This document shows positions 1 through 31,640 of a stretch of 64,000 bases of DNA, in pieces. The notes beneath the pieces are model-generated. The model saw nothing but the letters and a program-made list of their open reading frames with translations, did not search any database and was not told the origin of the DNA. Origin of the DNA: Planctomycetota bacterium (GTDB taxonomy: Bacteria > Planctomycetota > OFTM77); contig JAVJTD010000031.1 of assembly GCA_040219065.1 (NCBI GenBank), forward strand, positions 32,236 to 96,235, read 5' to 3'. The stretch's first letter is position 1, and every line of letters starts with the position of its first letter. The translations under genes were made by a program, and so were the position numbers.

Positions 1-58
1 ACGGACGCCTCATTTATCAAATGAAGGACTTCACCCTGAGCGCCCGGCCGAATCTGTC

Positions 59-1108
59 ATGACCTACACCCGCGTCCGGCTAGGAGCGATCGGCTACGAG
101 CTCCCCCCGATCGTCGTCAGCTCAGCGGAGCTCGAAGCGCGCCTGGCGCCCGTCTACCAGGCGCTGCACCTACCCCTCGGCCAGCTCGAGCAGCTCACCG
201 GCATCCACGAGCGCCGCTATTGGGAGGAAGGCTACCCGTTGTCCTTGGGTGCCGCCGCCGCGGCGCGCCGCGCGCTCGAACGAAGCGGCGTCGAGGCCCA
301 GGACATCGAGGTCTTGATCTATGCGGGCGTCTGCCGCGAGCAGTTCGAGCCGGCGACGGCCTGCCGCGTTGCGCACGAGCTCGGCGTCTCGCGCTCGGCC
401 GCGATCTTCGATTTGAGCAACGCGTGCCTCGGTGTGATGAACGGCATCCTCGACGTCGCCAACCGCATCGAGCTCGGCCAGATTCGTGCCGGGCTGGTCG
501 TCTCCTGTGAGGCGTCCCGTGACATCATCGAGCTCTCCATCGAGAGGATGCTCGAAAGCGGCAAGGACCTCGGCCTGTTCACACGCTCGATCGCGACCCT
601 GACGGGCGGCTCGGGCGCCGTCGCGGTACTGCTCACCGACGGGAGCTTCGGCGAGGAGGATCGTCCGCGCCTCGTCGGCGGCGTCACCGAGAATGCGCCG
701 GAGCACCACGAGCTCTGCCGCTGGGGCGTGCATCCGACGGAGACGCGCGGCTTGCGCCGCGAAGAGATGGCCACCGACTCGGTCGCGGTCCTGAAGAACG
801 GCGTCGAGCTGGGCGTGCGCACTTTCGGAGCATTGCTGGCCAAGCTCGGCTGGAGTGGCCAATCGATCGACCGCGTCATCTGCCACCAGGTCGGGTCGGC
901 CCACCAGAGCACGATCCTTCAATCGCTCGGGATTTCCGTCGAGAAGGACTTCGCGACCTACCCCTTCTTGGGCAACATCGGTACGGTGTCCCTGCCCCTG
1001 ACGGCCGCCATCGCAGCCGAGCGGCGAGTGCTGAAGCACGGCGACCGCGTGGCGTGGCTGGGGATCGGGAGCGGACTCAATTGCCTGATGCTGGGCTGGG
1101 AGTGGTGA
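59..1108 (+). CDS. oleA: OleA-type thiolase / 3-oxoacyl-ACP synthase III-like condensing enzyme
   Basis: 349 aa FabH-like fold with Cys in SNACLG, His in ICHQVGSAHQ and Asn in GNIGTVS. It is the first gene of a thiolase, alpha/beta hydrolase, AMP-ligase and NAD-reductase series typical of oleABCD. Confidence 0.75.
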   Translation: MTYTRVRLGAIGYELPPIVVSSAELEARLAPVYQALHLPLGQLEQLTGIHERRYWEEGYPLSLGAAAAARRALERSGVEAQDIEVLIYAGVCREQFEPATACRVAHELGVSRSAAIFDLSNACLGVMNGILDVANRIELGQIRAGLVVSCEASRDIIELSIERMLESGKDLGLFTRSIATLTGGSGAVAVLLTDGSFGEEDRPRLVGGVTENAPEHHELCRWGVHPTETRGLRREEMATDSVAVLKNGVELGVRTFGALLAKLGWSGQSIDRVICHQVGSAHQSTILQSLGISVEKDFATYPFLGNIGTVSLPLTAAIAAERRVLKHGDRVAWLGIGSGLNCLMLGWEW

Positions 1109-2007
1109 TGGAAGCGCAGTCTCCTTTTCCCGAGCACTACTTCGAGCGGGACGGGCTGAAGCGGCACTACGTCGACGAAGGCCACGGCGATCCGGTGGTG
1201 ATGGTGCACGGCAACCCGAGCTGGTCGTTTGCATTTCGGCATCTCGTCACCGAGCTGAGCCGCGATCACCGGACGATCGTGCCCGATCACATCGGCTGCG
1301 GGTTGTCCGACAAGCCCGGCGATGACCGTTACCGATACACCGCCGAGAGCCGCGTCGCCGACCTGACCGCGCTCCTCGATCACCTGGGCATCGACTCGAA
1401 CGTCACGCTCATCGTGCACGACTGGGGCGGCATGATCGGCATGGGCTGGGCCGTGCGTCACATCGAGCGCATCGCTCGCCTCGTCGTCCTGAACACCGCC
1501 GCCTTCCGTTTGCCGAAGGCGAAGCGTCTCCCGTTCGCGCTCTGGCTCACGCGCAACACGCCCCTGGGCACGTTTCTCGTGCGCGGCTTCAATGCCTTCG
1601 CCCGCGGCACCGCTCGCATCGGGACGAAGCGCGCGCCCATGCCCCAGGGCGTGCAGGAGCAATACGTCGCGCCGTACGACTCGTGGGCGCACCGCATCGC
1701 CACCTTGCGCTTCGTGCAGGACATCCCCCTGAAGCCGGGCGATCCGTCGTGGCCGCTGCTCGAGGAAGTCGAGGCCGGTCTCGAGAAGCTCCACGATAAG
1801 CCCATGTGGATCGGCTGGGGCGAGCGCGACTTCGTCTTCGATCGCCACTTCCTCGAAGAGTGGATGCGCCGCTTCCCACGCGCCGAGGTCCATCGGTTCC
1901 CCGACTGCGGACACTATGTCTTCGAGGATGCCCGCGAGGAGATCGTGCGGGGTATTCGCGCGTTCGTCGATGCTCACCCGCTGACGGCCACGAGCATCGC
2001 GCAGTGA
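1108..2007 (+). CDS. oleB: OleB-type alpha/beta hydrolase (haloalkane dehalogenase-like)
   Basis: Nucleophile elbow VHDWGG with an Asp nucleophile and an HGNPSWSF motif. The ATG at 1108 overlaps the oleA stop (ATGA), so the ORF-track N-terminal extension from 1054 is rejected. Confidence 0.75.
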   Translation: MEAQSPFPEHYFERDGLKRHYVDEGHGDPVVMVHGNPSWSFAFRHLVTELSRDHRTIVPDHIGCGLSDKPGDDRYRYTAESRVADLTALLDHLGIDSNVTLIVHDWGGMIGMGWAVRHIERIARLVVLNTAAFRLPKAKRLPFALWLTRNTPLGTFLVRGFNAFARGTARIGTKRAPMPQGVQEQYVAPYDSWAHRIATLRFVQDIPLKPGDPSWPLLEEVEAGLEKLHDKPMWIGWGERDFVFDRHFLEEWMRRFPRAEVHRFPDCGHYVFEDAREEIVRGIRAFVDAHPLTATSIAQ

Positions 2008-3677
2008 AGGGTACCGAGCGAGCCCCGAGGGTCGATGCGCCGCCGGACGCGCCCGGCTCGGTCAACGTCGCTCAGTACCTACCCGAGCAGGCTGCCCGGC
2101 AGCCCGGCGGCATCGCGCTGCGCTTCGAGGCATTGAGAGGACCGCGCGCCGAATGGAGCTTTCGAGCGCTCGATCAGGAGTGCGACCGGCTCGCCCACGG
2201 CCTCGAAGGCATCGGCATTCGCCGCGGCGTGCGCACCGTCCTCATGGTGCCGCCCTCGCCCGAGCTCTTCGCGTTGACGTTCGCGCTCTTCAAGATCGGC
2301 GCCGTCCCGGTGCTCGTCGACCCGGGCATGGGCGTGAGGAGCCTCGGGAAATGCCTCGATGAGGCCGCGCCTCAGGCGTTCATCGGCATTCCCAAGGCCC
2401 ATGTCGCCAGGCGCCTCTTGGGTTGGGCGAAGCGCACCGTCACGATCTCGGTGACGACGGGTAGGTTGGGCGGTCAGCCGCTGAGTCGCGTGCGCCGTGA
2501 CACCGGGCGCTCCTTCGAGATGGCAGACACCACCGCGGACGACATCGCCGCGATCCTGTTCACGAGCGGCAGCACGGGCGTGCCGAAGGGAGCCGTCTAC
2601 ACCCATGGCATCTTCACGGCGCAGATCGAGATGCTGCGGGAAGCCTACGGCATCGAGCCCGGTGAGGTGGACCTGCCGACGTTTCCCTTGTTCGCGCTCT
2701 TCGATCCGGCGCTCGGCATGACGGCCGTGATTCCCAAGATGGACTTCACGCGCCCGGGACACGTCCATCCGCCGAACATCATCGGGCCGATCCAAGAGCA
2801 CGCGATCACGAACATGTTCGGCTCGCCGGCTCTGCTGGACCGCGTCGGACGCTTCGGAGTGAAGGAAGGTGTGAAGCTTCCCTCATTGCGCCGCGTGCTC
2901 TCGGCCGGAGCCCCCGCCTCACCCGCCAACCTGGCGAGGTTCCAGAGCCTGCTCGAGGAAGGCGCCGAGATCTTCACGCCTTATGGGGCGACCGAGGCCT
3001 TGCCCGTCGCCTCGATCGGCAGCCGGGCGATCCTGGAGGAGACGCGGGAGGCGACCGAGCAAGGCGCGGGCATCTGCGTCGGCCGACCGGTGAGCGGCGT
3101 CGACGTCGCGATCATCGCCATCGACGACGGTCCGATCGAGGAGTGGTCGGAGACGATGCGCCTGCCGGCCAGGGAGGTCGGTGAGATCGTCGTCCACGGC
3201 CCGATCGTGACGCAGTCCTATCATTCGCGGCTCGAGGCGGATCGACTTTCCAAGATCGAGGATCTCGGCACGGGGCGCCGGCGCCATCGCCATCGCATGG
3301 GCGACCTGGGATACCTCGACGACGCAGGTCAGCTCTGGTTCTGCGGACGCAAAGCGCATCGCGTCGAGACCGAGAGCGGTCGCCTGTACACGATCTGCCT
3401 CGAGCGGATCTTCGATGCGCACCCGGCCGTGCGTCGCTCGGCCCTGGTCGGGGTCGGGAAGCGGGGCGAGCAGAGGCCGGTCCTCTGCGTCGAGCTGGAG
3501 AAGGACGGGAGTGAGGAAGCCGTGCGACGCGAGCTGCTCGAGATGGCTCGAATGCACGAGACGACCCGCGAGGTGAAAGACATCCTCTTCCACAAAGGGT
3601 TCCCCGTCGACATCCGCCACAACGCCAAGATATTCCGCGAGAAGCTCGCGGTGTGGGCCAGGGGGAAGCTGCGTTGA
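2004..3677 (+). CDS. oleC: OleC-type AMP-dependent synthetase/ligase
   Basis: AMP-binding motif LFTSGSTGVPKGAVYTH and adenylate-forming family signatures. The likely GTG start at 2004 overlaps the oleB stop. The ORF-track extension from 1806 overlaps oleB and is unlikely to be coding. Confidence 0.75.
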   Translation: MKGTERAPRVDAPPDAPGSVNVAQYLPEQAARQPGGIALRFEALRGPRAEWSFRALDQECDRLAHGLEGIGIRRGVRTVLMVPPSPELFALTFALFKIGAVPVLVDPGMGVRSLGKCLDEAAPQAFIGIPKAHVARRLLGWAKRTVTISVTTGRLGGQPLSRVRRDTGRSFEMADTTADDIAAILFTSGSTGVPKGAVYTHGIFTAQIEMLREAYGIEPGEVDLPTFPLFALFDPALGMTAVIPKMDFTRPGHVHPPNIIGPIQEHAITNMFGSPALLDRVGRFGVKEGVKLPSLRRVLSAGAPASPANLARFQSLLEEGAEIFTPYGATEALPVASIGSRAILEETREATEQGAGICVGRPVSGVDVAIIAIDDGPIEEWSETMRLPAREVGEIVVHGPIVTQSYHSRLEADRLSKIEDLGTGRRRHRHRMGDLGYLDDAGQLWFCGRKAHRVETESGRLYTICLERIFDAHPAVRRSALVGVGKRGEQRPVLCVELEKDGSEEAVRRELLEMARMHETTREVKDILFHKGFPVDIRHNAKIFREKLAVWARGKLR

Positions 3678-4684
3678 GGGCGCTCGTCACCGGGGCCGGC
3701 GGCTTTCTCGGCGGCGCGATCACGAGGCAGCTACTCGAGCGCTCGGACGAGGTCAGAAGCTTGGCCCGCGGCGCTTATCCCGAGCTGGAGGCGCTCGGCG
3801 TCGAGACTCGGCGCGGCAGCGTGGCCGATGTCGATGACGTCTTCGAGGCGGCCGAAGGCTGCGACATCGTCTTCCATGTCGCGGCCAAAGCCGGGATCTG
3901 GGGACCAAAGGTCGACTACTTTCGCACCAATGTCGTCGGCACCCGCAACGTCCTCGCCGTGTGTCAGAAGCTGGGCATCGAGCGCCTCGTCTACACGAGC
4001 TCGCCGAGCGTCGTGTTCTCAGGCGGTGACATCGAAGGTCGCGACGAGTCCCTGCCGTATCCCGAACGCTACTTGGCCGCCTACCCCGAGACCAAGGCCC
4101 GCGCCGAGCAAGAGGTGTTGGCAGCGAATGGTCCGTCCCTGCGAACGGTGGCACTGCGCCCGCACTTGATCTGGGGCCCCGGTGACAATCACCTCGTGCC
4201 GAGACTGATCGCCCGCGCGAAGGCCGGTCAGCTCCGTCTCGTCGCCGGCGGCCGCGGCCGCGTCGACTCGGTCTACATCGACGACGCCGCTCGAGCACAC
4301 CTGCTGGCGGCCGATGCGATCGCGGCAGTGGACTCCCCTGCCGCCGGCCAAGCCTACTTTATCTCCCAAGGCGAGCCCTGGACGATGCGCGATCTCCTGA
4401 ACGGCATCCTCGAAGCGGCCGGCCTACCGCCCGAGTCCCGCTCGATCCCGGGCCCCGTCGCCTACTTCGCAGGCGCCCTGATGGAGCTGTCGTATCGGGC
4501 GCGAGGCAAGACCGAAGAGCCCCGCATGACCCGCTTCCTCGCCCACCAGCTCGCCAGGGCCCACTGGTTCGACATCACTGCCGCCCGCCGTGACCTCGGC
4601 TATGAGCCATCGATGTCGATCCACGAAGGCCTCGAGAGATTGAGAGAGTCGTTGCGGGAAACCAGAGCCCACACGGGTCCCTGA
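3653..4684 (+). CDS. oleD: OleD-type NAD(P)-dependent reductase (3-beta-hydroxysteroid dehydrogenase/epimerase family)
   Basis: Rossmann motif LVTGAGGFLGG, a YxxxK (YPETK) active site and an extended SDR/3b-HSD fold. The start may instead be TTG 3674, which overlaps the oleC stop. Confidence 0.75.
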   Translation: MGQGEAALRALVTGAGGFLGGAITRQLLERSDEVRSLARGAYPELEALGVETRRGSVADVDDVFEAAEGCDIVFHVAAKAGIWGPKVDYFRTNVVGTRNVLAVCQKLGIERLVYTSSPSVVFSGGDIEGRDESLPYPERYLAAYPETKARAEQEVLAANGPSLRTVALRPHLIWGPGDNHLVPRLIARAKAGQLRLVAGGRGRVDSVYIDDAARAHLLAADAIAAVDSPAAGQAYFISQGEPWTMRDLLNGILEAAGLPPESRSIPGPVAYFAGALMELSYRARGKTEEPRMTRFLAHQLARAHWFDITAARRDLGYEPSMSIHEGLERLRESLRETRAHTGP

Positions 4685-4924
4685 CATGGAGCCGTAGCCG
4701 GTGGGATGGCGAGGTTCACGGCGTGGACCTCATCCGGCTGGCGATGAGTAAGGGACGATCCGACCTGCCCGTCAGTCAGGTCGTCAGAACGTTCCCTCGC
4801 CTTCGCTTGCGGGATCCGGTCCCGTCGTCCCTCACGAGGCCCCTCTGAATCGGTGGCGAGCTCTGTGCGCGCCGGCGTGTTGCCAACCCCGCGCCAGGGA
4901 CCTGTTCGGGCTCCGATCGTCTGT

Positions 4925-4956
4925 CTCAGCGCCGCCGGTCCGCCGGCGGCGCTGAG
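4925..4956. terminator. perfect 14-bp stem / 4-nt loop GC hairpin between convergent oleD and transporter genes
   Basis: CTCAGCGCCGCCGG-TCCG-CCGGCGGCGCTGAG is read directly in the sequence. There is no U-tract, so any terminator function is inferred. Confidence 0.25.
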
Positions 4957-5304
4957 TTGAAGCTAATGGGAACGCCGCATTCGGACCGCCGGCTTCAGCC
5001 GGTCTCCGTGTCCTCCATCCCAGCGCCTCGGAGAGGACCCAGACCTAAGATCCGAAACTCCGTGGCCCGATGCCGCCGGGGCGATCGGAACGCCATCTTC
5101 AAAGTTGAGAGTTGGAAGTCGAGCCGTTGGACGTTCGGGAGAGCCGGGCTCGACGGGTTTCACCATCTGCATGCTCCGGAGGTCCTCCGCCAGAGCCCGC
5201 GCAACCGAAAACAGAGTCCGCGCGACCGAAACGGGAAGCGGTCACGGAAAGGTGCCGAGCAAGGGGCCGTTCGGAGCGCCGCACCTGATCACACGATCAC
5301 CTGA

Positions 5305-6681
5305 TCACACGACCTCCGCCCCTTGTACGATCTCTTTCTTCTCGTGGAAGACGAACACGAACAGCAGCATGATCACCGCGGCAAAGATGGCCGGGAACAT
5401 CCAGATGGACTTCCAATCGAGGGCGGCCCGCTCGAGGAGATCGTCTCGCCGGGCGGTGAGGTCGTCGATCTCTTCCTTCGTATCGGTGGCCTCACTGCCC
5501 CTTTGTACCTCGTACTCTTCGGCCAACGAGTCGATCGTCTGGGTCAGCTCTTCTGCTTGCGTCGAAAGCTCTTCAGCGTTTTCCGGGGTGTTCTGGGCCT
5601 CGACGACTCCGGCCACCTGTGCCCCGATCAGCATCCCGAGGCCGAGCGTGAAGAAGACGAGCATGCCCTGCGCTTGGCCACGAATCGCCTTCGTCGCGAC
5701 CTTGTCCGTGTAGATCTGGCCGGTGACGAAGAAGAAGTCGTAGCAGATGCCGTGCAGTACGATGCCGCCGATGATCATCCAGGCGACCTCGTCCGGCGCT
5801 CCGAACGCGAACAAGGCGTAGCGCACGACCCAGGCGAGCATTCCGACGAAGAGCATCCACTTCACGCCGAGGCGAGCGAAGAAGAACGGCATCACCAGCA
5901 TGAAGAAGACTTCGGACATCTGGCCGTAGGACATCGTCGCACCAGAAGTCTCTTCGAAGCCAGACTGCGACACATAGGCACCGGCGAGCTGATAGTAGAA
6001 GGCAAGCGGGATGCAGATCAGGAAAGAGCTGACCATGAACGCGAGGTAGGCGGGTCGCTTCAGGAGGATCAACGCATCCAGTCCGAGCACTTCACGCGCC
6101 GTGATCTTCTCTCCGGCCGCCGGGGGGGGCGTGTGAGGCAGGCTGAAGCTGTAGATCCCCATCACGGCAGCCGCCGCGGTCGCGACGTAGAACATTTCGA
6201 TCGTGCCGTTCCAGCTGCAGAGACTGATGAGCAGTCCCGCCGCGATCCAGCCGATCGTCCCGAACACGCGGATCACCGGGAACTGCTTCTCGGCGTCGTC
6301 CATGTTGTGGAGCGCGAGCGTGTTAGTGAGCGAGAGCGTCGGATAGTAGGTGAGCATGTACCCGAGAAAGACCAGGTTGATCAGGCCTGGAGACGGCACG
6401 TCCGCCTTCATCAGGGTCACCGCCCCGAACATGATGGCGGCGCCCGCGAGGTGCAGCACCCCCATGATCCGCTCGGTCGAGAAGAAGCGGTCGGCGATCA
6501 TGCCGACGAAGAACGGCGAGAGCATGCCCGCAATGGGCCCGACCGAGTAGGTGATGGCGATCTCGCTCGGTCCGAATCCGATCTGGCCGAGGTACACGTA
6601 CGCCAAGACGTACCAGGACCCCCACATGAAGAACTGGAAGAACATCATCACGCAGAGGCGAGCGGTCAGCGTCGGATTCAT
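5305..6681 (-). CDS. nucleoside:H+ symporter family MFS transporter (NupG/XapB-like)
   Basis: The N-terminal FFQFFMWGSWY signature and overall NupG-like topology support the call. It carries an unusual roughly 55-aa acidic helical insertion (ENAEELSTQAEELTQTIDSLAEEY...) before the last TM helix. Confidence 0.7.
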   Translation of the reverse strand: MNPTLTARLCVMMFFQFFMWGSWYVLAYVYLGQIGFGPSEIAITYSVGPIAGMLSPFFVGMIADRFFSTERIMGVLHLAGAAIMFGAVTLMKADVPSPGLINLVFLGYMLTYYPTLSLTNTLALHNMDDAEKQFPVIRVFGTIGWIAAGLLISLCSWNGTIEMFYVATAAAAVMGIYSFSLPHTPPPAAGEKITAREVLGLDALILLKRPAYLAFMVSSFLICIPLAFYYQLAGAYVSQSGFEETSGATMSYGQMSEVFFMLVMPFFFARLGVKWMLFVGMLAWVVRYALFAFGAPDEVAWMIIGGIVLHGICYDFFFVTGQIYTDKVATKAIRGQAQGMLVFFTLGLGMLIGAQVAGVVEAQNTPENAEELSTQAEELTQTIDSLAEEYEVQRGSEATDTKEEIDDLTARRDDLLERAALDWKSIWMFPAIFAAVIMLLFVFVFHEKKEIVQGAEVV

Positions 6682-6855
6682 GTGCGCTCTCGTTCGGAAG
6701 ACGGGTCGAACGGGTCAGGTGTCCCAGGAAGGTCGGGGCATTCTACGGGCGGCGCCCGGTTCAGAAAAGGCGGCTCCGGCTCAGGTTCCGGCACTCGACC
6801 CGGCCGGGAAGGCCGAAGGCGCGGACGGGGAGTCCTCCACTTGGCCGCGAGTTCT

Positions 6856-6886
6856 GGAAATAAAAAAAACTCCGTAACAAAACGCA
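6856..6886. promoter_or_regulatory. A-tract / AT-rich island in the divergent intergenic region
   Basis: GGAAATAAAAAAAACTCCGTAACAAAAC sits in a 68% GC background, upstream of both the minus-strand transporter and the plus-strand gene at 6987. A UP-element-like role is inferred. Confidence 0.2.
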
Positions 6887-6986
6887 CCTCCGCGGCGAGC
6901 CTAGGGGAATCCCCCTCGCCGTTCCGGGAAGGTGTGCACTCATCGACTCGGTGTGTCATTCCATCAACAACTGATTCAGGCGAGTC

Positions 6987-7485
6987 GATGAAGCTGAGCC
7001 GAGAACGCATTGCGGAGCTCCCCACAAAGAGTCGGGTGGCTTTTGCCGCGGCTTGTGCCAGGCGATCACTCGAGGCACTGATCCAACAGCTCGCCGATCA
7101 GGAGCAGCAAAGGGCCTTCGACAACCTGCAGACGGCCCTCTCCGTGGTCGAGAGCTACGTGACCACGAGGGAGCATCCTCAAGACCCCTTTCGCGCCAAC
7201 GGTCTCGTGACGAACATCCTCGTCAAGCTTCGCGCGGAAGAAGAGCTCGCCGGGCACGTCTGCAGTGTCATCTCCGAAGCCCTCCTGGCGCAGTCCGCCG
7301 CCATGGCGGGCCGAGACGAGGCCATCACCCAGGCCGTCTCTCAGGCCGCCCACATCGCCGCCGACACGATCCTCGGCCGCGAGGTGGTCATCGAGCTGCT
7401 CGGGCGGTGCCTCGAGATCGCTCGTGCCCGCGACTGGGCCGACGACTCCCTCGTCGATCCGGACATCCTCGACGACGCAGGGTGA
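6987..7485 (+). CDS. hypothetical protein (helical, 166 aa)
   Basis: ATG 6987 opens a coherent non-low-complexity ORF. The long ORF-track entry 5323..7485 is otherwise antisense to the transporter. Confidence 0.35.
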
Positions 7486-7526
7486 GTGCTTCTCGGCGCG
7501 GCAACCGCTCGGTAGACTCCCGGTCA

Positions 7527-7684
7527 TGAAGCTCACCACCGGTCAGACCCTCTACCTCATTGGCGCAATCGTCGTGGCGGCCCTGATCACCATTCCGTCG
7601 TGGACGGCGCGCCTCCTGATCGTCCTCGCCGTCGTGATGGGCGTCGTCTCGTGGTGGCTGCGAAGGATGTCGTCCAGGCCGTAG
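7527..7684 (+). CDS. small membrane protein (52 aa, two TM segments)
   Basis: MKLTTGQTLYLIGAIVVAALITIPSWTARLLIVLAVVMGVVSWWL. The hydrophobic pattern is the only support. Confidence 0.3.
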
Positions 7685-7863
7685 GAAGTGCTCCGATTCG
7701 CCCGCGCGGCCAAGTTGTGTCATACTGATCGCAGCCAAGAGATCAAAAGCACCATTTCCAGCCCGCCTGGCTCCGCACCGATCGCGGTCGCCTCATCCGG
7801 CAAACCGCTCGATGCCTGCTTCGCAAAGCCGCCGAAGCGACCGGGCGCGAGACCTTCCGCCAG

Positions 7864-9861
7864 ATGGACATGCGACTGCCCTCCTCGAGCCTCCTTCACA
7901 CCCGCGCGCGCGGCGAGACTCCGACCCACGGCGCGGCACCACCGATTCGAGTGCGGCCCGGGCCCGCCGTCGCTCTAGCCTTCCTTCTCCTCGTCGCGGC
8001 CTGTGGAGATGGCTCAGCGGACCAAGGTCTGGCCCGGATCCCGACGCTGACGACGGGGTCCCTTCATTTGATGTCCGCCGAGCTCCTACAGCCGATCGAG
8101 TCGTCACCGATGCGGCTGGGGCAAGAGACTCGTCAAGCTTGGGTCGATTCGGCTCCCCATCGGCACGCCGTGGACTTGATGCTCGAAGGAGACTACCGGC
8201 TGAGCCTCGCCGTGGGTGTCCCCGAGGGCCTGGAGACGGGCGCGACGTTTCGTGTGCTGTGGAAGGGCGAGGACGGACAGACGGTCGAGGTCCTGGAGAA
8301 GACGCTGGATCCGGCGGCCGGTGGCGCATGGTGCCCGGTGCGGGCGGCGTGGACGGCCAGTGGCCGAGGGCAGCTCCACTTCGAGGCCACCTCGGAGTCC
8401 GAGGAAAGTATCGCCATTTGGGGCAGTCCGGTCTTGTCGGCCGTGTCCCGCCTGAATCGGCCGAGCGTGATTCTGGTGCTCCTCGACACGCTGCGAGCCG
8501 ACCACCTGGGCTGCTACGGCTACCAGGCGCCCACCTCCCCGCGCCTCGACGCCCTCGCCGAGACGGGCGTCCGCTTCGAGCGCGTCCTGGCCCAGGCGCC
8601 GTGGACTCTGCCGGCGACGATGTCGATCCTGACGTCGAGGACACCGACCGCGCACGGCATGATCTCGGCGGAGCGGATTCTGGATCCGTCGATCGAGACG
8701 CTGGCGAGCCGATTTGCCGCGGCGGGGTATCGGACGGCCGCCATCACCGAAGGGGGCATGGTCGACGCACAGTTCGGATTCGATCGCGGCTTCGAGCTGT
8801 ATCTCGGGGACATCCTGGGCCGCAGCGCTCGAGAGACCTTCGAGGCAGCCCGCGAGTGGATCGACTCGGTGGGTGATGAGACCTTCTTCCTCGTCGTCCA
8901 CACCTATGAGATCCACGAGCCCTATGAGCCTCCCGCGGAGTACCTCGAGGTGATCTCGCCGTCCGAGTCACGAGGGCACGTCCATCCGCGACTGAAGGAC
9001 GGATTCGTGGCCGCCGAGCTGTACCGGGGCGCGCTGGCCGCGAAGTCACCGAGCGAGTTCCGGCTAGAAGAGCCGCTGACGCCGGCCGACCTCGAGCACA
9101 TCGTGAGCCTGTACGATGCCGAGATCCGCTTCACCGACGCGTGCCTCGGTGAGCTGGTGGATCACCTGAAGGCGCGCGGACGATACGAAGACACGCTGTG
9201 GGCGATCACCTCCGACCACGGCGAGGACTTCTACGACCACTTCGGCTTCGGGATCCACGCGCACTCGCTCTTCGACGAGCTGTTGCACGTCCCGTGGATC
9301 CTGACGGGACCGGGCGTCGTATCGGGTCATGTCGCGTCCACGCCGGTCGCGCAGATCGACATCGCCCCGACGCTGCTCGAGCTCGTCGGACTCGACATCC
9401 CGGCTCCGTTCATGGGGAGATCGCTCGTTCCCCTGACTCGCGGAATGCCCCTGAAGGCGATCCCGATAGCGAGCGAGCGCTCGCCGGACCTCTCTTGCGT
9501 CGAAGCCGGATCCTACAAGTTGATCGAGGCGACAGCGAGCTACGTCGAGAAGGTCAACAAGAGGAAGAAGACCCAAACCCGCGTGATGTCCAAGACGCTC
9601 GGGCTCGACGTCACGCCGTACTTCCAAGGGCTAGAGGGTGTCCCGGCGGAGACGATGCTGTTCGACCTCGAGAAGGACCCGGGTGAGCGCCGGAACATCG
9701 CCACCAGCGAGCCTGAGAGGATCCGAGACCTCACCGAAGCGCTCGAGCGGCTCCGGCGTCTGAGCGCCGAGCATGCGCCGCAATCGAATTCGACCATTCG
9801 AATGCGCCCGGAGCTCGAGCGCCGGTTGAGGAATCTCGGCTACCTCGGAGACGACGACTGA
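7864..9861 (+). CDS. sulfatase-family (alkaline phosphatase superfamily) lipoprotein
   Basis: Lipobox LLLVAAC. Sulfatase N-terminal metal-binding block VILVLLDTLRADHLGCYGY and later ITSDHGEDF / HAHS motifs. Confidence 0.75.
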   Translation: MDMRLPSSSLLHTRARGETPTHGAAPPIRVRPGPAVALAFLLLVAACGDGSADQGLARIPTLTTGSLHLMSAELLQPIESSPMRLGQETRQAWVDSAPHRHAVDLMLEGDYRLSLAVGVPEGLETGATFRVLWKGEDGQTVEVLEKTLDPAAGGAWCPVRAAWTASGRGQLHFEATSESEESIAIWGSPVLSAVSRLNRPSVILVLLDTLRADHLGCYGYQAPTSPRLDALAETGVRFERVLAQAPWTLPATMSILTSRTPTAHGMISAERILDPSIETLASRFAAAGYRTAAITEGGMVDAQFGFDRGFELYLGDILGRSARETFEAAREWIDSVGDETFFLVVHTYEIHEPYEPPAEYLEVISPSESRGHVHPRLKDGFVAAELYRGALAAKSPSEFRLEEPLTPADLEHIVSLYDAEIRFTDACLGELVDHLKARGRYEDTLWAITSDHGEDFYDHFGFGIHAHSLFDELLHVPWILTGPGVVSGHVASTPVAQIDIAPTLLELVGLDIPAPFMGRSLVPLTRGMPLKAIPIASERSPDLSCVEAGSYKLIEATASYVEKVNKRKKTQTRVMSKTLGLDVTPYFQGLEGVPAETMLFDLEKDPGERRNIATSEPERIRDLTEALERLRRLSAEHAPQSNSTIRMRPELERRLRNLGYLGDDD

Positions 9862-10061: not shown

Positions 10062-10139
10062 CGGGGCGTAGCTCAGCCTGGTTAGAGTGCCTGCTTTGGG
10101 AGCAGGAAGTCGGTGGTTCGAATCCACTCGCCCCGACCA
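10062..10139 (+). tRNA. tRNA-Pro (anticodon UGG)
   Basis: 78-nt cloverleaf. Acceptor stem CGGGGCG/CGCCCCG, anticodon stem CCTGC/GCAGG with loop TTTGGGA, T-arm GGTGG-TTCGAAT-CCACT, discriminator A and encoded CCA. Confidence 0.85.
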
Positions 10140-15480: not shown

Positions 15481-18021
15481 TCAGCGTCGACTCTGATTGA
15501 AGAGGATCGAGAGGTCATCCGAGTCGACGTTCGGGACGACGAGGTCGGGCAATCCGTCGAGATTGATATCTGAGACAGCGACCGCCGAGCAGCCACGTCC
15601 AGTCGCGAAGACCCGTGCCGAGTTGAAGCTGGCGTCTCCGCGGCCCTTCAAGAAGTTTACGCCGTCCTTCTCTTCGCCGGCCGCAGCGACATCCAAGAAC
15701 CCGTCGGAGTCGAAATCCGCGACGACGACCTGCCCACGCCCTCCGCGATAATGAACGGCGTTACTGAACGTGCCGTCCGCGCGTCCTTTAAGGATCGAGA
15801 GCCAGTCGCTGGACCAGCAGCAGACGGCCAGGTCCAGAATTCCATCGGAATTCAAGTCGGCGACCGCGAGCGCGCGCGGTCCGGTTTGGGTCCAGAAGAA
15901 TCCCTTAGACTTGAAGTTGCCATCTCCCTCACTCAAGAGGATGGATACGCTGGAACGACCCGAATTGACGACAGCCAGATCAGGATGACCATCGCGGTTG
16001 AAGTCGGCGATGGCGACGGCACGCGGGCCCGTTTCGACACTGTATCTCCGCTCGGGCTCGAAAGTCCCATCGCCCAGCCCCAGGAGGACCGCCACTTCGT
16101 CCGACTCCCAAAGCGGTGTCACCAAGTCCGGAATCTGATCTCCATTCAGGTCCTCGGCGGCAATTGCAGACGGGCCACCGCTGAGAGGAATTACCTTCTG
16201 TGGCTCGAACGTCCCGTCACCTCTTCCCAGCAAGAGCGAGATGTTCTCCGTCCACTGATTGGAGACCGCGATGTCGAGAACCCCGTCGCCACTGAAGTCC
16301 GCGAACGCCGCAGCTTTCGGGTCGCCGCCAACCCGATAGGGAACTGACTCACCGAAGGTCCCCTTCTCGAGACCCAAAGAGACCGCGATCTCGTTGGAAT
16401 CCTCGTGAGTGGTGATCAAGTCCGAGAAGCCGTCTCCATCGAGATCCGCGATCGAAAGCCCGGTCGGATTAAGGTGGGCCAGAAGGCGATCCTCAGCCAC
16501 GCAAGTGCCATCCCCGATCCCGATGGAGACCATCATGGATACACCCGAAGTGGTCTGAGAGCAGAGAATGACGAGGTCGGGCGACTCGTCGCCGTTCAGG
16601 TCCGTGCTCGCAACGAAGTGCGGGTTCGGCTTGGCGGAGATCCGCTGCCGAAGAGCGAAGGAGCGATTTCCTTTCGCGAGTAGGATGAACACCTCCTCCT
16701 GGCCCTGCATGGCGACTACGAGGTCGAGCTTGCCATCGCCATTCATGTCCGCCACGGTCAATGACCGTGGACCGTTTCCGACCAGGTAGCGTCTTTGGCT
16801 CTCGAACTCGCCATGACCCAGCCCGTACAGGACGCTGACGCTTTGGGACAAGCGGTTGGCGACCGCTATGTCAGGGAAGCCATCACCGTCCAGATCGCTG
16901 ACGACGACGAAGCTGGGCAGCACCTCGGTCGGTAGGCGGCGCTCCCTCTCGAAGGTGCCGTCTCCGCGGTTCATCAAGACGGACACGTCGTCGGAGTCTT
17001 CATTGGCCGTCACGATGTCGGGAGCCCCATCGGCATCGAGGTCCGCAACGGCGAGGGACAGCGGGTCTACGCCGACGGCATACCGCTGCTGCTCTTCGAA
17101 GCTGCCATCCCCTCGGCCGAACAGGATGGAGACGTCGTCCGAGCCCAGATTGCCGACGGCGAGGTCGGGAACACCGTCGGCGTCGAAGTCCGAGATCGCC
17201 ACGGCGCGAGGGCTTCCGCCAGTCGTGTACCGCACTTCGGGCGCGAAGGTCCGGTCACCGCGACTGAGAAGAATGGACACACTCTTGGAGAGCGCATTGG
17301 CGACGGCGAGGTCGGGATGATGATCACCGTTCAGATCACCTATGGCGACCGAGTAAGGAGCGTATCCGACGTCGTAGAATACTGGATCGGCGAGTGTGCC
17401 ATCGCCCAGACCATAGTAGACAGCGACCTCGTGGGCGGTCTCCAAGGCAACGGCCAAGTCCAAGCGGCCGTCCAGGTCGAGGTCGGCACTCGCCGCGGCG
17501 CGTGGCTGCCCCTTGGTGTAGTACTGTGCTCCAGGGAACAATGGCGCTCCGCCCAATGGCACTGGCCCCACCTCCAGACGGTGACCCGGCGTGAAGGCCA
17601 CTTGCCCTTGCGCACTGGGATCTTGAATGATGGCCTGAATGATAAGGCGCTTACCGCAATGCTTCGGGTCGAGAGCCTCGAAGGAGACGAGGGTGCGCTC
17701 TCCGACCACATTCAGGCGAAACGGTATGCGCTTCTTCGGGCCACTGGGATACAGCATCGCTCCGAAGCGGGGTAGCCAAACGGGATCGACGTCATACCCG
17801 ATCAGGAGCTCGCCTTTTGCGGCCGGAAGATTGTGTCGCACGGTGACCGACAGGAAGCCGTGAATGGCCGGCGTGCCGCCGACGACGATCCGCGGAACAC
17901 CCGAGACGCCGGGAGTTCCCTTGCCGAAGCTCTCTTGCACGGGCTTGCCGGGGCAATCCGCGCGGAGCTCGGTCGTGAGTCCACTCAGGATCGACAAGCC
18001 AAGAAGAAAGAAGCCTCTCAC
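15481..18021 (-). CDS. secreted FG-GAP / VCBS-type repeat beta-propeller protein
   Basis: More than ten DxNGDGxxDL FG-GAP-like calcium-binding repeats. The chosen GTG start (18021) has an AAGGAG RBS and gives a signal peptide RGFFLLGLSILSGLTTELRA. Confidence 0.7.
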   Translation of the reverse strand: MRGFFLLGLSILSGLTTELRADCPGKPVQESFGKGTPGVSGVPRIVVGGTPAIHGFLSVTVRHNLPAAKGELLIGYDVDPVWLPRFGAMLYPSGPKKRIPFRLNVVGERTLVSFEALDPKHCGKRLIIQAIIQDPSAQGQVAFTPGHRLEVGPVPLGGAPLFPGAQYYTKGQPRAAASADLDLDGRLDLAVALETAHEVAVYYGLGDGTLADPVFYDVGYAPYSVAIGDLNGDHHPDLAVANALSKSVSILLSRGDRTFAPEVRYTTGGSPRAVAISDFDADGVPDLAVGNLGSDDVSILFGRGDGSFEEQQRYAVGVDPLSLAVADLDADGAPDIVTANEDSDDVSVLMNRGDGTFERERRLPTEVLPSFVVVSDLDGDGFPDIAVANRLSQSVSVLYGLGHGEFESQRRYLVGNGPRSLTVADMNGDGKLDLVVAMQGQEEVFILLAKGNRSFALRQRISAKPNPHFVASTDLNGDESPDLVILCSQTTSGVSMMVSIGIGDGTCVAEDRLLAHLNPTGLSIADLDGDGFSDLITTHEDSNEIAVSLGLEKGTFGESVPYRVGGDPKAAAFADFSGDGVLDIAVSNQWTENISLLLGRGDGTFEPQKVIPLSGGPSAIAAEDLNGDQIPDLVTPLWESDEVAVLLGLGDGTFEPERRYSVETGPRAVAIADFNRDGHPDLAVVNSGRSSVSILLSEGDGNFKSKGFFWTQTGPRALAVADLNSDGILDLAVCCWSSDWLSILKGRADGTFSNAVHYRGGRGQVVVADFDSDGFLDVAAAGEEKDGVNFLKGRGDASFNSARVFATGRGCSAVAVSDINLDGLPDLVVPNVDSDDLSILFNQSRR

Positions 18022-18328
18022 GATGATCTCCTTCGACGTTCCACCGGCCAGAGTGCCTGGCCTGGCGGAGACTCCCCCACCCGGTCGCGGCTGTCTTCCG
18101 AGGCGAGGTCGAAACAAGGAGACTCAGCCTCGCACAGCCTGCCCTCGGCCGGCAAGGGGGCTCAACGTCGTCCTTCGCTCTCACCTCAGCGCCTTGAACC
18201 GGCTGGCCCCTTCGCGGTGCGGCGGATAGAATGCCCGGTCTTCGACGGCCCCCCTGACCGGGTGCCTCCTGACCGCGCGCGGCGGACGGGGTGCGCCTCC
18301 AACCGAGAGATAACGAGGAGATTGCCGC

Positions 18329-19525
18329 ATGGCCCGGCGGATGGATACCTACCTGGCCTCACTCGTCGACGAGGATCGCCTGACCTTCTACGAGGCCGCT
18401 TGTGACTTCGCCGGCTCCGAGATCGCGCCCCACCTCCTGGGCTGGGAGCGTGAGCACATCCACGTACCCGACGACGCGATTCGCGCGATGGCCGGGCTGG
18501 GGCTCTTCGGCTTGACCGTCGAGGACGAGTACGGCGGTCAAGGCGGCGGCCTGACCGACCTGGTGATCATGGGTCTCGCCCTCGGGTACCACAGCCAGAG
18601 CGTCGCGATCACGCCCGGCGCGGCAGCCAGCCTGGGCACCAAGCCTCTCCAGCTCTTCGGCAATGACGCCCAGAAGAAGGCCCACCTCCCCGACCTCGCC
18701 GAAGGCAAGCGCATGTTCGTCTTCGGGCTGTCCGAGCCCGGACGCGGCTCCGATGCCGCCAACCCCGAGGTCACGGCGACGCCCGACGGTGATGGCGGAT
18801 GGACGATCAAGGGCGAGAAGTGCTGGTCGACGAATGCGAAGTGGGCGAGTCATGTGATCGTGCACGCGCTCACGGATCCGAGCGGACGACCCGGTCACCG
18901 CTCGACCTGCTTCATCGTTCCGATGGACGCCGAGGGCGTGCACTACCAGGAGATGGCGGGCAAGGAGGTCTGGCACCAATCCTCGACGGGCTCGATCGCC
19001 TTCGAGAACGTGAAGGTCGGTGACGACGCAATCCTCGGCGAGCGCAACGAGGGCTTCAAGGTGATGGTGACGACCCTCAACGGCGGTCGCCTCTTCATCG
19101 CGGGCCTGTCGCTGGCGTCTCTGGCGTTCGCGCTCGACAAGTGCCGCATCTATGCGCAGGAGCGGATCCAGTTCGACGAGCTGCCCATCGGCCGATTCCA
19201 GCGTGTCCAGGACGTCATCTTGGACATGGACATCGCGCTGCATCAGAACCTCACTTGGCTGTTCAAGTCCCTCGAGCAGTACGAGGCCGGCACGATGCTG
19301 CGCGAGACGGCTGCCAAGGTGAAGATCGAGTGCTCCCGTCGCGCCTCCGACCTGTTGACGATGGCGATGGAGATCTGCGGCGGTGTCGCCTGCTTCGACG
19401 AGTTCGAGCTCATCCGTCACCACCGCGACCTCTTCGTCTGCCGCGTCGGTGAAGGCAGCAACTTCGCGCTCAAGACCATGTCGGTGCGACCGCTCATGCC
19501 CGACATCGGCAACGTGCTCCAATGA
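18329..19525 (+). CDS. acyl-CoA dehydrogenase family protein
   Basis: ACAD N-terminal, middle and C-terminal domain pattern (LFGLTVEDEYGGQGG, GLSEPGRGSDAANPEVTA, C-terminal catalytic-base region). Confidence 0.8.
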   Translation: MARRMDTYLASLVDEDRLTFYEAACDFAGSEIAPHLLGWEREHIHVPDDAIRAMAGLGLFGLTVEDEYGGQGGGLTDLVIMGLALGYHSQSVAITPGAAASLGTKPLQLFGNDAQKKAHLPDLAEGKRMFVFGLSEPGRGSDAANPEVTATPDGDGGWTIKGEKCWSTNAKWASHVIVHALTDPSGRPGHRSTCFIVPMDAEGVHYQEMAGKEVWHQSSTGSIAFENVKVGDDAILGERNEGFKVMVTTLNGGRLFIAGLSLASLAFALDKCRIYAQERIQFDELPIGRFQRVQDVILDMDIALHQNLTWLFKSLEQYEAGTMLRETAAKVKIECSRRASDLLTMAMEICGGVACFDEFELIRHHRDLFVCRVGEGSNFALKTMSVRPLMPDIGNVLQ

Positions 19526-19592
19526 GGGCGTCTCGGCGAGTCGGCACCGTCCGGGTCGCCGCTGAGCTCGATCGACCGGCTGGGGAGAGATC

Positions 19593-20795
19593 ATGACCGC
19601 GTCCCGCGTCGCCGCGACCAGCGAGCACGCTGCTCACTGGCAGCTCGAAGAGGGCATCGAGTTCCTCAACCACGGCTCCTTCGGTGCCTGCCCCACCAAG
19701 ATCCTCGAGGCACAGGACCGGTGGCGAAAGCGCATCGAGCTCGAGCCCGTCCGCTTCTTCGTCCATGAGCTCGAGCCGGCACTCGACGAGACGCGCCGAG
19801 AGCTCGGGAGCTTCCTCGGTGCGAGTCCCGACTGCCTCGCCTTCGTGCCGAACGCGACCTACGGCGTCAACTCGATCCTGCGCTCCCTCGAGCTCGGACC
19901 GCAGGACGAGCTGCTGGTGAGCAACCACGAGTACAATGCGAGCCGCAACGCTCTCGACTTCGTCGCGGCGCGGACCGGCGCCCGTGTGCAGGTCGTCGAG
20001 ATCCCCTTCCCACTGAAGAGCGCCGATGAGGTCGTCGAGCGCGTGCTGGGCGCGGTCAACGCGCGGACGCGCCTGCTCCTGATCGACCACGTCACCAGCC
20101 AGACCGGGTTGGTCTTGCCGATCGAGCCGATCGTCCAAGAGCTCAACCGCCGCGGCATCGACACGTTGATCGACGGCGCCCATGCGCCAGGCATGGTGCC
20201 CCTCGAGCTCGACCGACTGGGAGCCACCTACTACACCGGCAACTGCCACAAGTGGCTGTGCACGCCGAAGGGCTCCGCCTTGCTCTACGTGCGCGAGGAC
20301 CGCCAAGCGCGCATTCGCCCCCTCGCCATCAGCCACGGCGCGAACTCGCCGCGCAGCGATCGCTCGAAGTACCTGATCGAGTTCGATTGGACGGGCACCA
20401 TCGATCCGACACCCTGGCTGGTCATCCCCGAATCGATCCGATTCCTGGGATCCCTCCTGCCCGGTGGATTCGAGGCGCTTCGCAAGCACAACCGCGACCT
20501 CGCCCTCGCCGCGCGCCCGATCGTCGCCGACGCGCTCGGGATCGAGCTGCCCTGTCCCGACACGATGATCGGCCACCTCGCCTCGTTCCCGCTGCCGCCG
20601 GGCAAGGACGAAGCGCCCAAGTCCTCTCTGTACGTCGACCCGCTCCAAGACGACCTGATGTCGCGCTGGGGCATCGAGATCCCGATCATGCCGTGGCCCG
20701 CTCCGCCGAAGCGGATCATCCGCTTCTCGGCGCAGCTCTACAACTCGCTCGAGCAATACAAGCGCCTCGCCGGGGCACTCAAAGAGCTGCTCTGA
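19593..20795 (+). CDS. class V aminotransferase-fold PLP enzyme (isopenicillin-N epimerase-like)
   Basis: EFLNHGSFGACP N-terminus and TGNCHKWLCTPKG lysine region typical of class V PLP enzymes. Confidence 0.7.
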   Translation: MTASRVAATSEHAAHWQLEEGIEFLNHGSFGACPTKILEAQDRWRKRIELEPVRFFVHELEPALDETRRELGSFLGASPDCLAFVPNATYGVNSILRSLELGPQDELLVSNHEYNASRNALDFVAARTGARVQVVEIPFPLKSADEVVERVLGAVNARTRLLLIDHVTSQTGLVLPIEPIVQELNRRGIDTLIDGAHAPGMVPLELDRLGATYYTGNCHKWLCTPKGSALLYVREDRQARIRPLAISHGANSPRSDRSKYLIEFDWTGTIDPTPWLVIPESIRFLGSLLPGGFEALRKHNRDLALAARPIVADALGIELPCPDTMIGHLASFPLPPGKDEAPKSSLYVDPLQDDLMSRWGIEIPIMPWPAPPKRIIRFSAQLYNSLEQYKRLAGALKELL

Positions 20796-21328
20796 TGGCG
20801 AAGAACATCGAGATCAAGGCGAAGGCGCGCGATTGGGACGCGCAGCTCGAGGCGGCGCGCCGGCGCGGCGATCACGAGGAGATCCTCGAGCAGAAGGACG
20901 TCTTCTTTCGTTGTCCGGAGTCTGCCGGAAGCGAGAGCCCGGCACGACTGAAGCTGCGCCGCGTCAATGGACGCTCCGAGCTGATCGCTTACCACCGTCC
21001 GGACCACGCGACGGCCAAGACGAGTGACTATGAGCGTTGTGCCGTGGAAGACCCTGAGGCGCTGGGCCGGGCGTTGACCAAGGCGCTCGGCGCGATCGGT
21101 GTCGTCCAGAAGACTCGGACGCTGGTGATGGTCGGACAGACGCGCATCCACTTCGACGAGGTCGAAGGGCTCGGCCGCTACCTCGAGCTCGAGGTCGTGC
21201 TCCGAGAGGGACAGTCCGAGGCAGAAGGCCAAGCCATCGCCGATGAGCTCTGTGAGTATTTGAGCATCACCGGCGACGACCTCGTCGAAGGCGCCTACCT
21301 CGACCACCTCACTTGCAGCACGAAGTGA
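20795..21328 (+). CDS. CYTH-domain protein (class IV adenylate cyclase / CyaB-like)
   Basis: MAKNIEIKAKARDW opening typical of CYTH triphosphate tunnel proteins. The ATG overlaps the upstream stop (ATGA). Confidence 0.6.
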   Translation: MAKNIEIKAKARDWDAQLEAARRRGDHEEILEQKDVFFRCPESAGSESPARLKLRRVNGRSELIAYHRPDHATAKTSDYERCAVEDPEALGRALTKALGAIGVVQKTRTLVMVGQTRIHFDEVEGLGRYLELEVVLREGQSEAEGQAIADELCEYLSITGDDLVEGAYLDHLTCSTK

Positions 21329-21350
21329 GTCTCGACGGGCCGTGGCCCCG

Positions 21351-21995
21351 TCACACCTTCAGCTCGGCCAAGCTGCCGATCGGCGCTCGCCCCGGCAGGC
21401 CTTCGAAGTGCTCCGGTGGCGTGACGCCCGTCAGGACGGGCTGAAAGTGAGTGCCTGCACCCTGGGCCGTCTCGGCGTCGATGCGGCTGTCGCCGACGTA
21501 GAGCGTCGCGCTCGGCGCCACGGACAATCGATCGAGGCACAAGAGCAACCCCTCGGGATCGGGCTTGTGGGTCATCACGTCCTCGCCGCCGATCACCGTC
21601 TCGAAGAATGCTGACAGCTCATCGCGCTCGAGGACGTCCTCGATGCGGCGCCGCGTCTTGGTCGAGACGATGGCGCACTTCGATCCCCCATCACGTAACC
21701 TCTCGAGACACGGGACCACCGTCTCGAAGACCCGGGTCTTCGCGAGCATTACCGCGCTCGCCTGCGCGTGATAAATGTCCATGAAGCGTTGGGCCGCATC
21801 AGGATCCCCGACGCCGGAGAGCTCGCGGAAGGCGTGCGGCAGGCTCATGCCGATCGTGCGGCGGACCCGGTCCGGCTCGGGCGCGACAAGCTTCATCACT
21901 TCAAATGTAGCCCGGAAGGAATGCACGATACCGGGCGATGCATCGGCGAGGGTGTAGTCGAAGTCGAAGACGACGGCTTGAATCGTCGGTGTCAT
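21351..21995 (-). CDS. HAD-superfamily hydrolase (phosphoglycolate phosphatase-like)
   Basis: DFDYTLAD motif I, a VSTKT-type motif II, K...GD motif III/IV (YVGDSRID). The start is set at MTPTIQ rather than the longer ORF. Confidence 0.7.
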   Translation of the reverse strand: MTPTIQAVVFDFDYTLADASPGIVHSFRATFEVMKLVAPEPDRVRRTIGMSLPHAFRELSGVGDPDAAQRFMDIYHAQASAVMLAKTRVFETVVPCLERLRDGGSKCAIVSTKTRRRIEDVLERDELSAFFETVIGGEDVMTHKPDPEGLLLCLDRLSVAPSATLYVGDSRIDAETAQGAGTHFQPVLTGVTPPEHFEGLPGRAPIGSLAELKV

Positions 21996-22052
21996 CGAAG
22001 TGAAGATGCCGGCGTTGACGACGATTGTCCACTGAAGGATCGGGTAGGCACC

Positions 22053-22607
22053 ATGACGTTCGAGGCGCGCTCCCTCACTCGAGACACCCTCTCGGACTTC
22101 TTCGAGCTGCACTCGGCCGCGAACGGCGGCGGGTGGTGCCATTGCGTCGCTTGGGCCGTGCCGACCTGGGACGGCTGGGGTGATCGGACCGCCGAGGAGA
22201 ACCGCGCCTTGCGCGAGGAGCGCTTCCGAGACGGCGACCTCGACCAGATCCTGCTGTACGAGGACGAGCGGCCCGTCGCGTCTTGCCAGATCGGGCCGCG
22301 AGACCGCTTTCCCAAGATCCTGGCGCAGTTCGGCCTGGAAAAGGACGCCAATTGCTGGGCCATCACGTGCTTCTTCGTCGCTCCCGATCGCAGGGGCCGC
22401 GGAGCAGCGCGCGCGCTCCTCGAAGCGGCGATCGAGAAGGCGAAGTCCGCGTCGGCGACGCGCCTCCAAGCCTTCCCGCGGCGCGGCGAGGGCCTCGACG
22501 CGGGCGAGGTGTGGAACGGGCCGGAGGCGATGTTCGCCGCGGCGAGGTTTCGTGTGTATCGGGACGACCCGGTCCGGCCCGTCCTCCAGCTCGACCTCGG
22601 CGCATGA
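22053..22607 (+). CDS. GNAT-family N-acetyltransferase
   Basis: Acetyl-CoA-binding-like segment APDRRGRGAARALLEAAIEKA. Size and position fit a GNAT. Confidence 0.6.
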   Translation: MTFEARSLTRDTLSDFFELHSAANGGGWCHCVAWAVPTWDGWGDRTAEENRALREERFRDGDLDQILLYEDERPVASCQIGPRDRFPKILAQFGLEKDANCWAITCFFVAPDRRGRGAARALLEAAIEKAKSASATRLQAFPRRGEGLDAGEVWNGPEAMFAAARFRVYRDDPVRPVLQLDLGA

Positions 22608-23377: not shown

Positions 23378-23446
23378 TGTCGAGCCTCCGAGGCGGAATG
23401 CTGGTGGTCGAATCGACCTCCCAACGTCCCACCCTGGAGCCCACCC

Positions 23447-24691: not shown

Positions 24692-24710
24692 TCTCCGCGA
24701 GGTCACGGTC

Positions 24711-31579: not shown

Positions 31580-31640
31580 GGTAGACTCCCCTCGGGCACG
31601 CATCCGGCTCGGACGCAGGCCCTCCCCAAGGACACCCGGC

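Follow-up and report, generated by a model that had tools for sequence, protein, structure and literature searches.

We analyzed a 64,000-nt stretch of DNA from an uncultured planctomycete (contig JAVJTD010000031.1, positions 32,236 to 96,235; hereafter, the window) and focused on the four genes at positions 59 to 4684. These genes very probably constitute a complete oleABCD cluster for head-to-head olefin biosynthesis, located at the tail of a pfa-ole operon, and their product would most likely be the very-long-chain polyunsaturated membrane hydrocarbon n-C31:9. The original prediction, made from the DNA letters, placed four codirectional genes at these positions in the order OleA-OleB-OleC-OleD, and its coordinates match the NCBI gene calls. 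Its interpretation of the genes as an olefin cluster is supported by our data but is incomplete, because an operon shared with pfa genes narrows the expected product from long-chain olefins in general to polyunsaturated hydrocarbons of the C31:9 type.

Layout of the ole cluster

The four open reading frames (ORFs) lie on the plus strand of a window with a GC content of approximately 67%. For three of them, the ORF listing offered more than one start (59-1108, 1054/1105/1108-2007, 1806/2004-3677, and 3653/3674-4684). The NCBI annotation of the 127,331-bp contig, which is labeled "MAG: Planctomycetota bacterium" (MAG, metagenome-assembled genome), contains the same four genes with identical proteins. 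We rejected the longer starts of OleB (GTG 1054), OleC (GTG 1806), and OleD (GTG 3653) because neither the profile alignments nor the relatives begin before the short starts, which are also those that NCBI calls. An antisense ORF (958-2061, minus strand) with raised GC content at third codon positions (GC3) was also rejected; given that oleB has strong homologs, this ORF is its shadow in high-GC DNA. The four proteins match Ole-type profiles with E-values of 1e-124 to 1e-223, which excludes chance ORFs in DNA of 67% GC.

With the NCBI starts, adjacent genes overlap by 4 nt at all three internal junctions of the cluster. The shared sequence is GTGA between oleA and oleB (1105-1108), GTGA between oleB and oleC (2004-2007), and TTGA between oleC and oleD (3674-3677). 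Three of four junctions had been predicted to overlap through ATGA or GTGA; the cluster has no more than three internal junctions, and every one of them overlaps. An ATGA does occur at 59-62, where it forms the junction of oleA with an upstream pfaBC gene that leaves the window.

Identity of the four proteins

The first protein passes the NCBIfam model NF006720/PRK09258 with 472 bits (cutoff, 285), whereas fabH models score it at 79 to 104 bits, well under their cutoffs of 249 to 292. In a search of the PDB, the twelve best distinct sequences were Xanthomonas campestris OleA entries (3ROW, 4KU5, and others), with 3ROW the best match (E-value, 2.6e-56; 195 bits) and the best FabH at 76 bits. 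Both types of score therefore place the protein closer to OleA than to housekeeping FabH, and there is no fabD-fabG context around its gene. Residues E97, C123, H276, and N306 align in the PDB alignment with E117, C143, H285, and N315 of X. campestris OleA, in which E117 is a catalytic base supplied by the partner subunit, C143 accepts the acyl chain, and H285 and N315 form the oxyanion-hole pair (PMC8180931). The OleA-specific glutamate, E97, sits in the sequence FEPATA, equivalent to LEPSTA in X. campestris, and all four residues are invariant across 13 relatives. The protein is 56% identical to Shewanella OleA and 35% identical to X. campestris OleA. We assign it as a predicted OleA, a thiolase for the nondecarboxylative head-to-head Claisen condensation of two acyl chains.

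The second protein is an alpha/beta-hydrolase (Abhydrolase_1, 104 bits). Numbered from ATG 1108, its HDWGG motif occupies residues 104 to 108 (window 1417-1431). Its best PDB match is DhmeA (8CKP/8OOH), an enzyme of the haloalkane-dehalogenase-like subfamily III (HLD-III), to which X. campestris OleB also belongs; the catalytic pentad of DhmeA is N63, D129, W130, D258, and H286 (PMC10503415). In the same numbering, N36, D105, W106, D241, and H269 of our protein align with this pentad. The protein is 62% identical to OleB of a Shewanella oleABCD cluster, the homolog listing includes Shewanella proteins at approximately 61% identity, and many homologs at 63 to 65% identity bear the JGI name "cis-3-alkyl-4-acyloxetan-2-one decarboxylase," which is the OleB enzyme name. 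These results bear out the predicted assignment of gene 2 as OleB, a putative beta-lactone decarboxylase with an HLD-III fold.

The third protein passes NF006754 over its full length (742 bits; cutoff, 478), with a margin of >450 bits over the best model for ordinary acyl coenzyme A (acyl-CoA) ligases. It also aligns end to end with two equivalog models for olefin beta-lactone synthetases, NF045786 (686 bits) and NF045785 (654 bits), and the next family after these OleC-specific models scores 179 bits. The motif LFTSGSTGVPKG is found at residues 185 to 196 (window 2556-2591); within and beyond it are TSGSTGVPKG at 187 to 196, YGATE at 327 to 331, and K542. The protein is 48% identical to Shewanella OleC, and its features point to OleC, the ATP-dependent olefin beta-lactone synthetase of the ANL adenylate-forming superfamily.

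The fourth protein scores highest against the models for 2-alkyl-3-oxoalkanoate reductases, with 429 bits for NF042423 and 416 bits for NF042422, and the next family is HpnA at 153 bits; it also matches PF01073 with 178 bits. Signatures of the short-chain dehydrogenase/reductase (SDR) family are present as TGAGGFLGG at residues 6 to 14, S109/S110, and Y137xxxK141, and identity to Shewanella OleD is 51%. Gene 4 is predicted to encode OleD, an NAD(P)H-dependent 2-alkyl-3-oxoalkanoate reductase of the extended SDR type (3-beta-HSD family). Matches to Ole-specific profiles thus run the full length of both OleC and OleD, though at scores under the cutoffs of these narrow models. All the motifs quoted in the original prediction were found again: HDWGG in OleB, the OleC motif, the Cys/His/Asn triad of OleA, and the NAD-binding motif of OleD. 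PDB sequence searches matched no OleB, OleC, or OleD structures; because the matches were to generic haloalkane dehalogenases, nonribosomal peptide synthetases or acyl-CoA ligases, and sterol or sugar SDRs, they inform only fold and catalytic residues for these three proteins.

The upstream pfa genes

The first 58 nt of the window precede oleA. To the left of the window, we followed the locus on an independent assembly, Logan contig SRR26147846_25130 (L001), which was retrieved by a lookup of the exact OleA protein and is 100% identical to the window over positions 1 to 1441 (1,441 nt). The TGA stop of the gene upstream of oleA (60-62) overlaps the oleA ATG (59-61). On L001, this gene occupies 2558-9355 and encodes a protein of 2,265 amino acids (aa) with two ketosynthase (KS)-type domains, one a KS and the other a chain-length factor (CLF), an acyltransferase (AT) of the PfaB family (TIGR02816, 99 bits), and three FabA-like stretches. 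Because of this content of KS, KS/CLF, PfaB-family AT, and FabA domains, we identify the gene as a predicted pfaB-pfaC fusion. Before it on L001 lie the C-terminal 829 aa of a PfaA homolog (TIGR02813, 373 bits), which comprise ketoreductase (KR) and PS-DH domains.

Since pfaBC and oleA share 4 nt, the pfa and ole sets here are predicted to form one operon, of which oleABCD would be the promoter-distal 3' end and the polyunsaturated fatty acid (PUFA)-synthase-like pfa genes the earlier part. That each gene from pfaBC onward to oleD overlaps its neighbor by 4 nt argues for cotranscription and translational coupling. A scan of positions 1 to 5400 for promoters and terminators gave matches at or near the shuffled expectation, with no evidence of an internal promoter and no canonical terminator after oleD, and an Rfam search of the whole window found only a tRNA-Pro and no RNA element in or beside the ole cluster. 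The 620-nt gap between oleD and a convergent nucleoside symporter gene contains a GC-rich inverted repeat (Table 1). The consensus terminator scan did not report this repeat, and its stem is not followed by a T-run; speculatively, it may act as a bidirectional transcription stop.

Conservation of the pfaBC-ole linkage

We scanned genomes with the OleA alignment, taking one genome per species, and obtained 80 loci. Among the 76 loci with room upstream, 67 have the C-terminus of PfaBC at most 1 kb before oleA (median, 18 nt); among the 54 with >4.2 kb of downstream sequence, 39 have oleA followed by oleB, oleC, and oleD in this order. The cluster had been described as patchily distributed, and the survey agrees. 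Its hosts include Planctomycetota (Singulisphaera sp. GP187, Aquisphaera insulae, Gemmataceae, Isosphaeraceae, and Phycisphaeraceae), Geobacterales/Desulfuromonadales (Geomonas, Pelotalea, and Geomobilimonas), MAGs labeled Gammaproteobacteria or Thiotrichaceae, Limisphaerales, Elusimicrobiota, and KSB3. The genome nearest to the window is another uncultured Planctomycetota MAG (L002; OleA identity, 83%). Scanning metagenomes with the C-terminus of PfaA yielded loci of sufficient length to hold the whole unit. Two of these metagenome relatives (L150 and L113) have the order PfaD-like enoyl reductase-PfaA-PfaBC-OleA-OleB-OleC, with a full-length PfaA of the architecture KS-AT-ACP x2-4-KR-DH (ACP, acyl carrier protein; DH, dehydratase).

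Two variants were seen among the relatives. Fourteen loci (L003-L008, L014, L019, L023, L030-L032, L036, and L043) encode 399-aa OleA homologs, which are approximately 50 residues longer than the OleA of the window owing to an internal insertion. Their hosts are MAGs labeled Gammaproteobacteria, Thiotrichaceae, Phycisphaeraceae, or "Enterobacteriaceae"; PfaBC is upstream in 13 of the 14, and several carry an insertion of 1.3 to 8.6 kb between oleA and oleB. In a MAG labeled Desulfobacteraceae 4572_35.1 (L057), the pfa genes are rearranged, with a PfaBC-like N-terminal part (1235-4156) followed by a homolog of the PfaA C-terminus (4763-7321). Unlike in the common order, no PfaBC C-terminus stands directly upstream of oleA in this locus.

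Predicted product and alternative readings

Type I pfa-like clusters, which are defined by a pfaBC fusion, have been described in Deltaproteobacteria and in Gemmata, with finds in Geobacter, Pelobacter, Desulfuromonas, and the planctomycete Gemmata obscuriglobus; ole genes are often linked to them, and it has been proposed that they feed olefin synthesis (Shulse and Allen, PMC3098273). In Shewanella, OleA condenses a 16:4n-3 chain made by Pfa, which it probably receives straight from ACP domains within the synthase (Allemann et al., PMC6463001). [quoted passage not shown] The locus in the window is a further case of the published arrangement of Type I pfa-like and ole genes, in a phylum from which this lipid is already known. 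The place of the ole genes at the end of a pfa-ole operon leads us to predict a product of the C31:9 type.

By analogy with the Xanthomonas and Shewanella systems, we infer the following activities. The Pfa synthase would supply a polyunsaturated acyl chain of C16 length, which in Shewanella is 16:4n-3, and this chain would be loaded on C123 of OleA; after deprotonation of the alpha-carbon by E97, Claisen condensation with a second chain would yield a 2-alkyl-3-oxo acid. OleD would then reduce the 3-keto group, and OleC would adenylate the resulting 3-hydroxy acid with ATP and close it to a beta-lactone. Finally, OleB would open the lactone through its nucleophile D105 and decarboxylate it to a cis-olefin.

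We compared the locus with systems of known chemistry. The oleABCD locus of Shewanella (CP080417.1, L083) has the same A-B-C-D order, and the identities to OleA, OleB, OleC, and OleD (56, 62, 48, and 51%) extend over essentially the full length of the proteins. In the Shewanella genome examined, however, oleABCD is not beside pfa, and pfaB and pfaC are separate genes, whereas in the window pfaBC is fused, overlaps oleA, and is followed by ole genes that overlap at every junction. A Pfa-type acyl donor has been shown experimentally for Shewanella oneidensis/pealeana (PMC6463001); for the planctomycete, it is suggested by the linkage. The defining trait of Type I pfa-like plus ole loci, the pfaBC fusion, is present here, and the ole genes are directly downstream as they are in Geomonas, Pelotalea, Geomobilimonas, Singulisphaera, and Aquisphaera, although protein identity to these loci is only 40 to 67%. 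X. campestris OleABCD is the biochemical and structural model; the same chemistry is expected for the window, given conserved OleA catalytic residues and an OleB of the same HLD-III subfamily. Xanthomonas differs in drawing C10-C16 acyl-CoAs from ordinary fatty acid metabolism, with no linked pfa genes.

Several points weigh against our interpretation. OleC scores under the equivalog cutoffs (686 versus 900 bits for NF045786 and 654 versus 850 for NF045785), which belong to narrow clade models, and OleD is under the 580-bit cutoffs of both its equivalog models. Both proteins thus fall short of Xanthomonas-type cutoffs and therefore lie outside the Xanthomonas and Shewanella clades on which the models were trained. 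The basis for assigning OleB includes no OleB-specific profile. L001 ends inside pfaA, which puts the positions of the PfaA N-terminus, PfaD, and a phosphopantetheinyl transferase (PPTase) beyond the sequence seen for this genome, and a search of the 59 kb downstream of the cluster (window 4.7 to 64 kb) found neither a PfaE-type PPTase nor a PfaT (hot-dog) thioesterase. In addition, no hydrocarbon was detectable in Photobacterium profundum, although its pfa and ole operons are adjacent (PMC6463001), so the presence of the genes does not guarantee the product.

The chain of overlaps from pfaBC to oleD might reflect a physically coupled Pfa synthase-OleA-OleBCD assembly, with chains passing from ACP to OleA without a thioesterase or CoA, and the hydrocarbon that it makes in this deep-branching uncultured planctomycete lineage might also differ from C31:9 in length or degree of unsaturation; we consider this rather improbable. 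Still less probable is a system of the Xanthomonas or Micrococcus type, in which acyl-CoAs from a type II fatty acid synthase (FAS) would give C27-C31 mono- or diunsaturated or branched olefins and the pfa genes would make a separate product. Such a system would use the same set of enzymes, and X. campestris OleA is a clear homolog of the first protein. Moreover, Type I pfa-like synthases have formally uncharacterized products (PMC3098273), and substrate choice is not readable from sequence. However, this reading is disfavored by a pfaBC stop that overlaps the oleA start, by a pfa linkage that is kept across phyla in most of the loci surveyed, and by an OleA that is much closer to the Shewanella than to the Xanthomonas protein. 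Geobacter bemidjiensis, which carries a Type I cluster, produces C31:9 (PMC3098273), and planctomycetes contain n-C31:9.

We see only a very remote chance that the genes form a natural-product cluster for a beta-lactone, like the oleACD clusters for lipstatin or nocardiolactone, with the lactone as the end product and an unrelated hydrolase. Homologs of OleA, OleC, and OleD do make beta-lactones in Actinobacteria, and the thiolase, reductase, and beta-lactone synthetase steps of the lst and nlt clusters are common to the cluster described here (PMC7064751). Those clusters, however, are defined by the lack of oleB and end at the lactone, whereas the planctomycete cluster has an oleB with an intact pentad that overlaps both of its neighbors and whose product is 62% identical to Shewanella OleB, and it is not flanked by tailoring genes such as those for a P450 or a glycosyltransferase. 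A housekeeping FabH with chance neighbors (a dehalogenase, an acyl-CoA ligase, and a sugar epimerase), for which the automatic NCBI names of the four proteins are just the generic names one would expect, has practically no probability and is ruled out by the profile margins (failed fabH cutoffs, NF006720 passed), the PDB margins, the OleA-specific E97 in its FEP context, and a four-gene order that recurs in dozens of distant genomes.

The assignment of a pfa-ole operon marks an uncultured planctomycete as a probable maker of a C31 polyunsaturated hydrocarbon, a chemotaxonomic lipid of its phylum, and replaces four generic database names with the correct ones, OleA, OleB, OleC, and OleD. In this OleA clade, linkage of pfaBC to oleABCD is the prevailing arrangement across at least six phyla, and the survey helps with annotation and with the choice of compact clusters for heterologous hydrocarbon production. 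The locus opens no new biological question.

Other features of the window

The remaining 59 kb contain no genes belonging to the pfa-ole system. Neighbors of the cluster include the nucleoside:H+ symporter gene (minus strand), a sulfatase gene, the tRNA-Pro gene, genes for FG-GAP proteins, a chemotaxis cluster, an extracytoplasmic function (ECF) sigma factor gene, and others (Table 1).

Table 1 Coordinates of the ole cluster and of other features in the window
Feature	Position	Strand	Description
pfaBC, 3' end	3-62	+	Last 19 codons and TGA stop
oleA	59-1108	+	349 aa; ATG 59; MEQ8762579.1
oleB	1105-2007	+	300 aa from GTG 1105 (NCBI call; starts MMEAQ), or 299 aa from ATG 1108
oleC	2004-3677	+	557 aa; GTG 2004; MEQ8762581.1
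oleD	3674-4684	+	336 aa; TTG 3674; MEQ8762582.1
Inverted repeat	4925-4956		Perfect, 14 nt, GC-rich (CTCAGCGCCGCCGG / CCGGCGGCGCTGAG; 4-nt loop)
tRNA-Pro	10062-10139	+	Anticodon TGG; only RNA gene detected in 64 kb
FG-GAP/VCBS-repeat proteins, large	15481-18123 and 52134-56831	-	
Acyl-CoA dehydrogenase	18314-19525		
Class-V aminotransferases (two)	19566-20795 and 23378-24691		
Haloacid dehalogenase (HAD) hydrolase	21351-22658		Opposite strand to neighboring enzymes
S-adenosylmethionine (SAM) methyltransferase	24666-25547		Overlaps second class-V aminotransferase
Chemotaxis cluster	25809-37259	-	
ECF-type sigma-70 domain protein	38738-41218	-	826 aa; N-terminal sigma-70 domain (r2, r4); long extension with CarboxypepD_reg-like domain
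BlaI/Penicillinase_R-type repressor domain protein	41010-41786	+	Adjoins 826-aa sigma protein
PAP2-domain protein	46367-47728	-	
GNAT acetyltransferase	47943-48809	-	Abuts PLP-dependent decarboxylase
Pyridoxal phosphate (PLP)-dependent decarboxylase	48810-50579	-	
MAP3K_TRAF_bd/TPR-S protein	57229-58578	+	449 aa; MAP3K_TRAF_bd (PF13281, 150 bits); TPR-S sensor repeat (PF20308, 102 bits)
ORF of 1,490 aa	58628-63100	-	GC3 0.72; no Pfam-A match at E <= 1e-5

The FG-GAP/VCBS proteins are typical planctomycete content and fit the taxonomic label of the MAG; the second of them is 1,565 aa long and also has DUF7133 and HEAT repeats. The enzyme genes at 18314-25547 may form a small biosynthetic unit. 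The chemotaxis cluster includes two separate genes for CheB-type methylesterase/response regulators (25809-26960 and 28861-30120), a methyl-accepting chemotaxis protein with dCache and HAMP domains (31641-34481), and a CheA-CheW fusion (34758-37259). The 449-aa protein near the right end of the window has a signaling-type architecture that is unusual for a bacterium, and no domain is assigned to its first approximately 90 residues.

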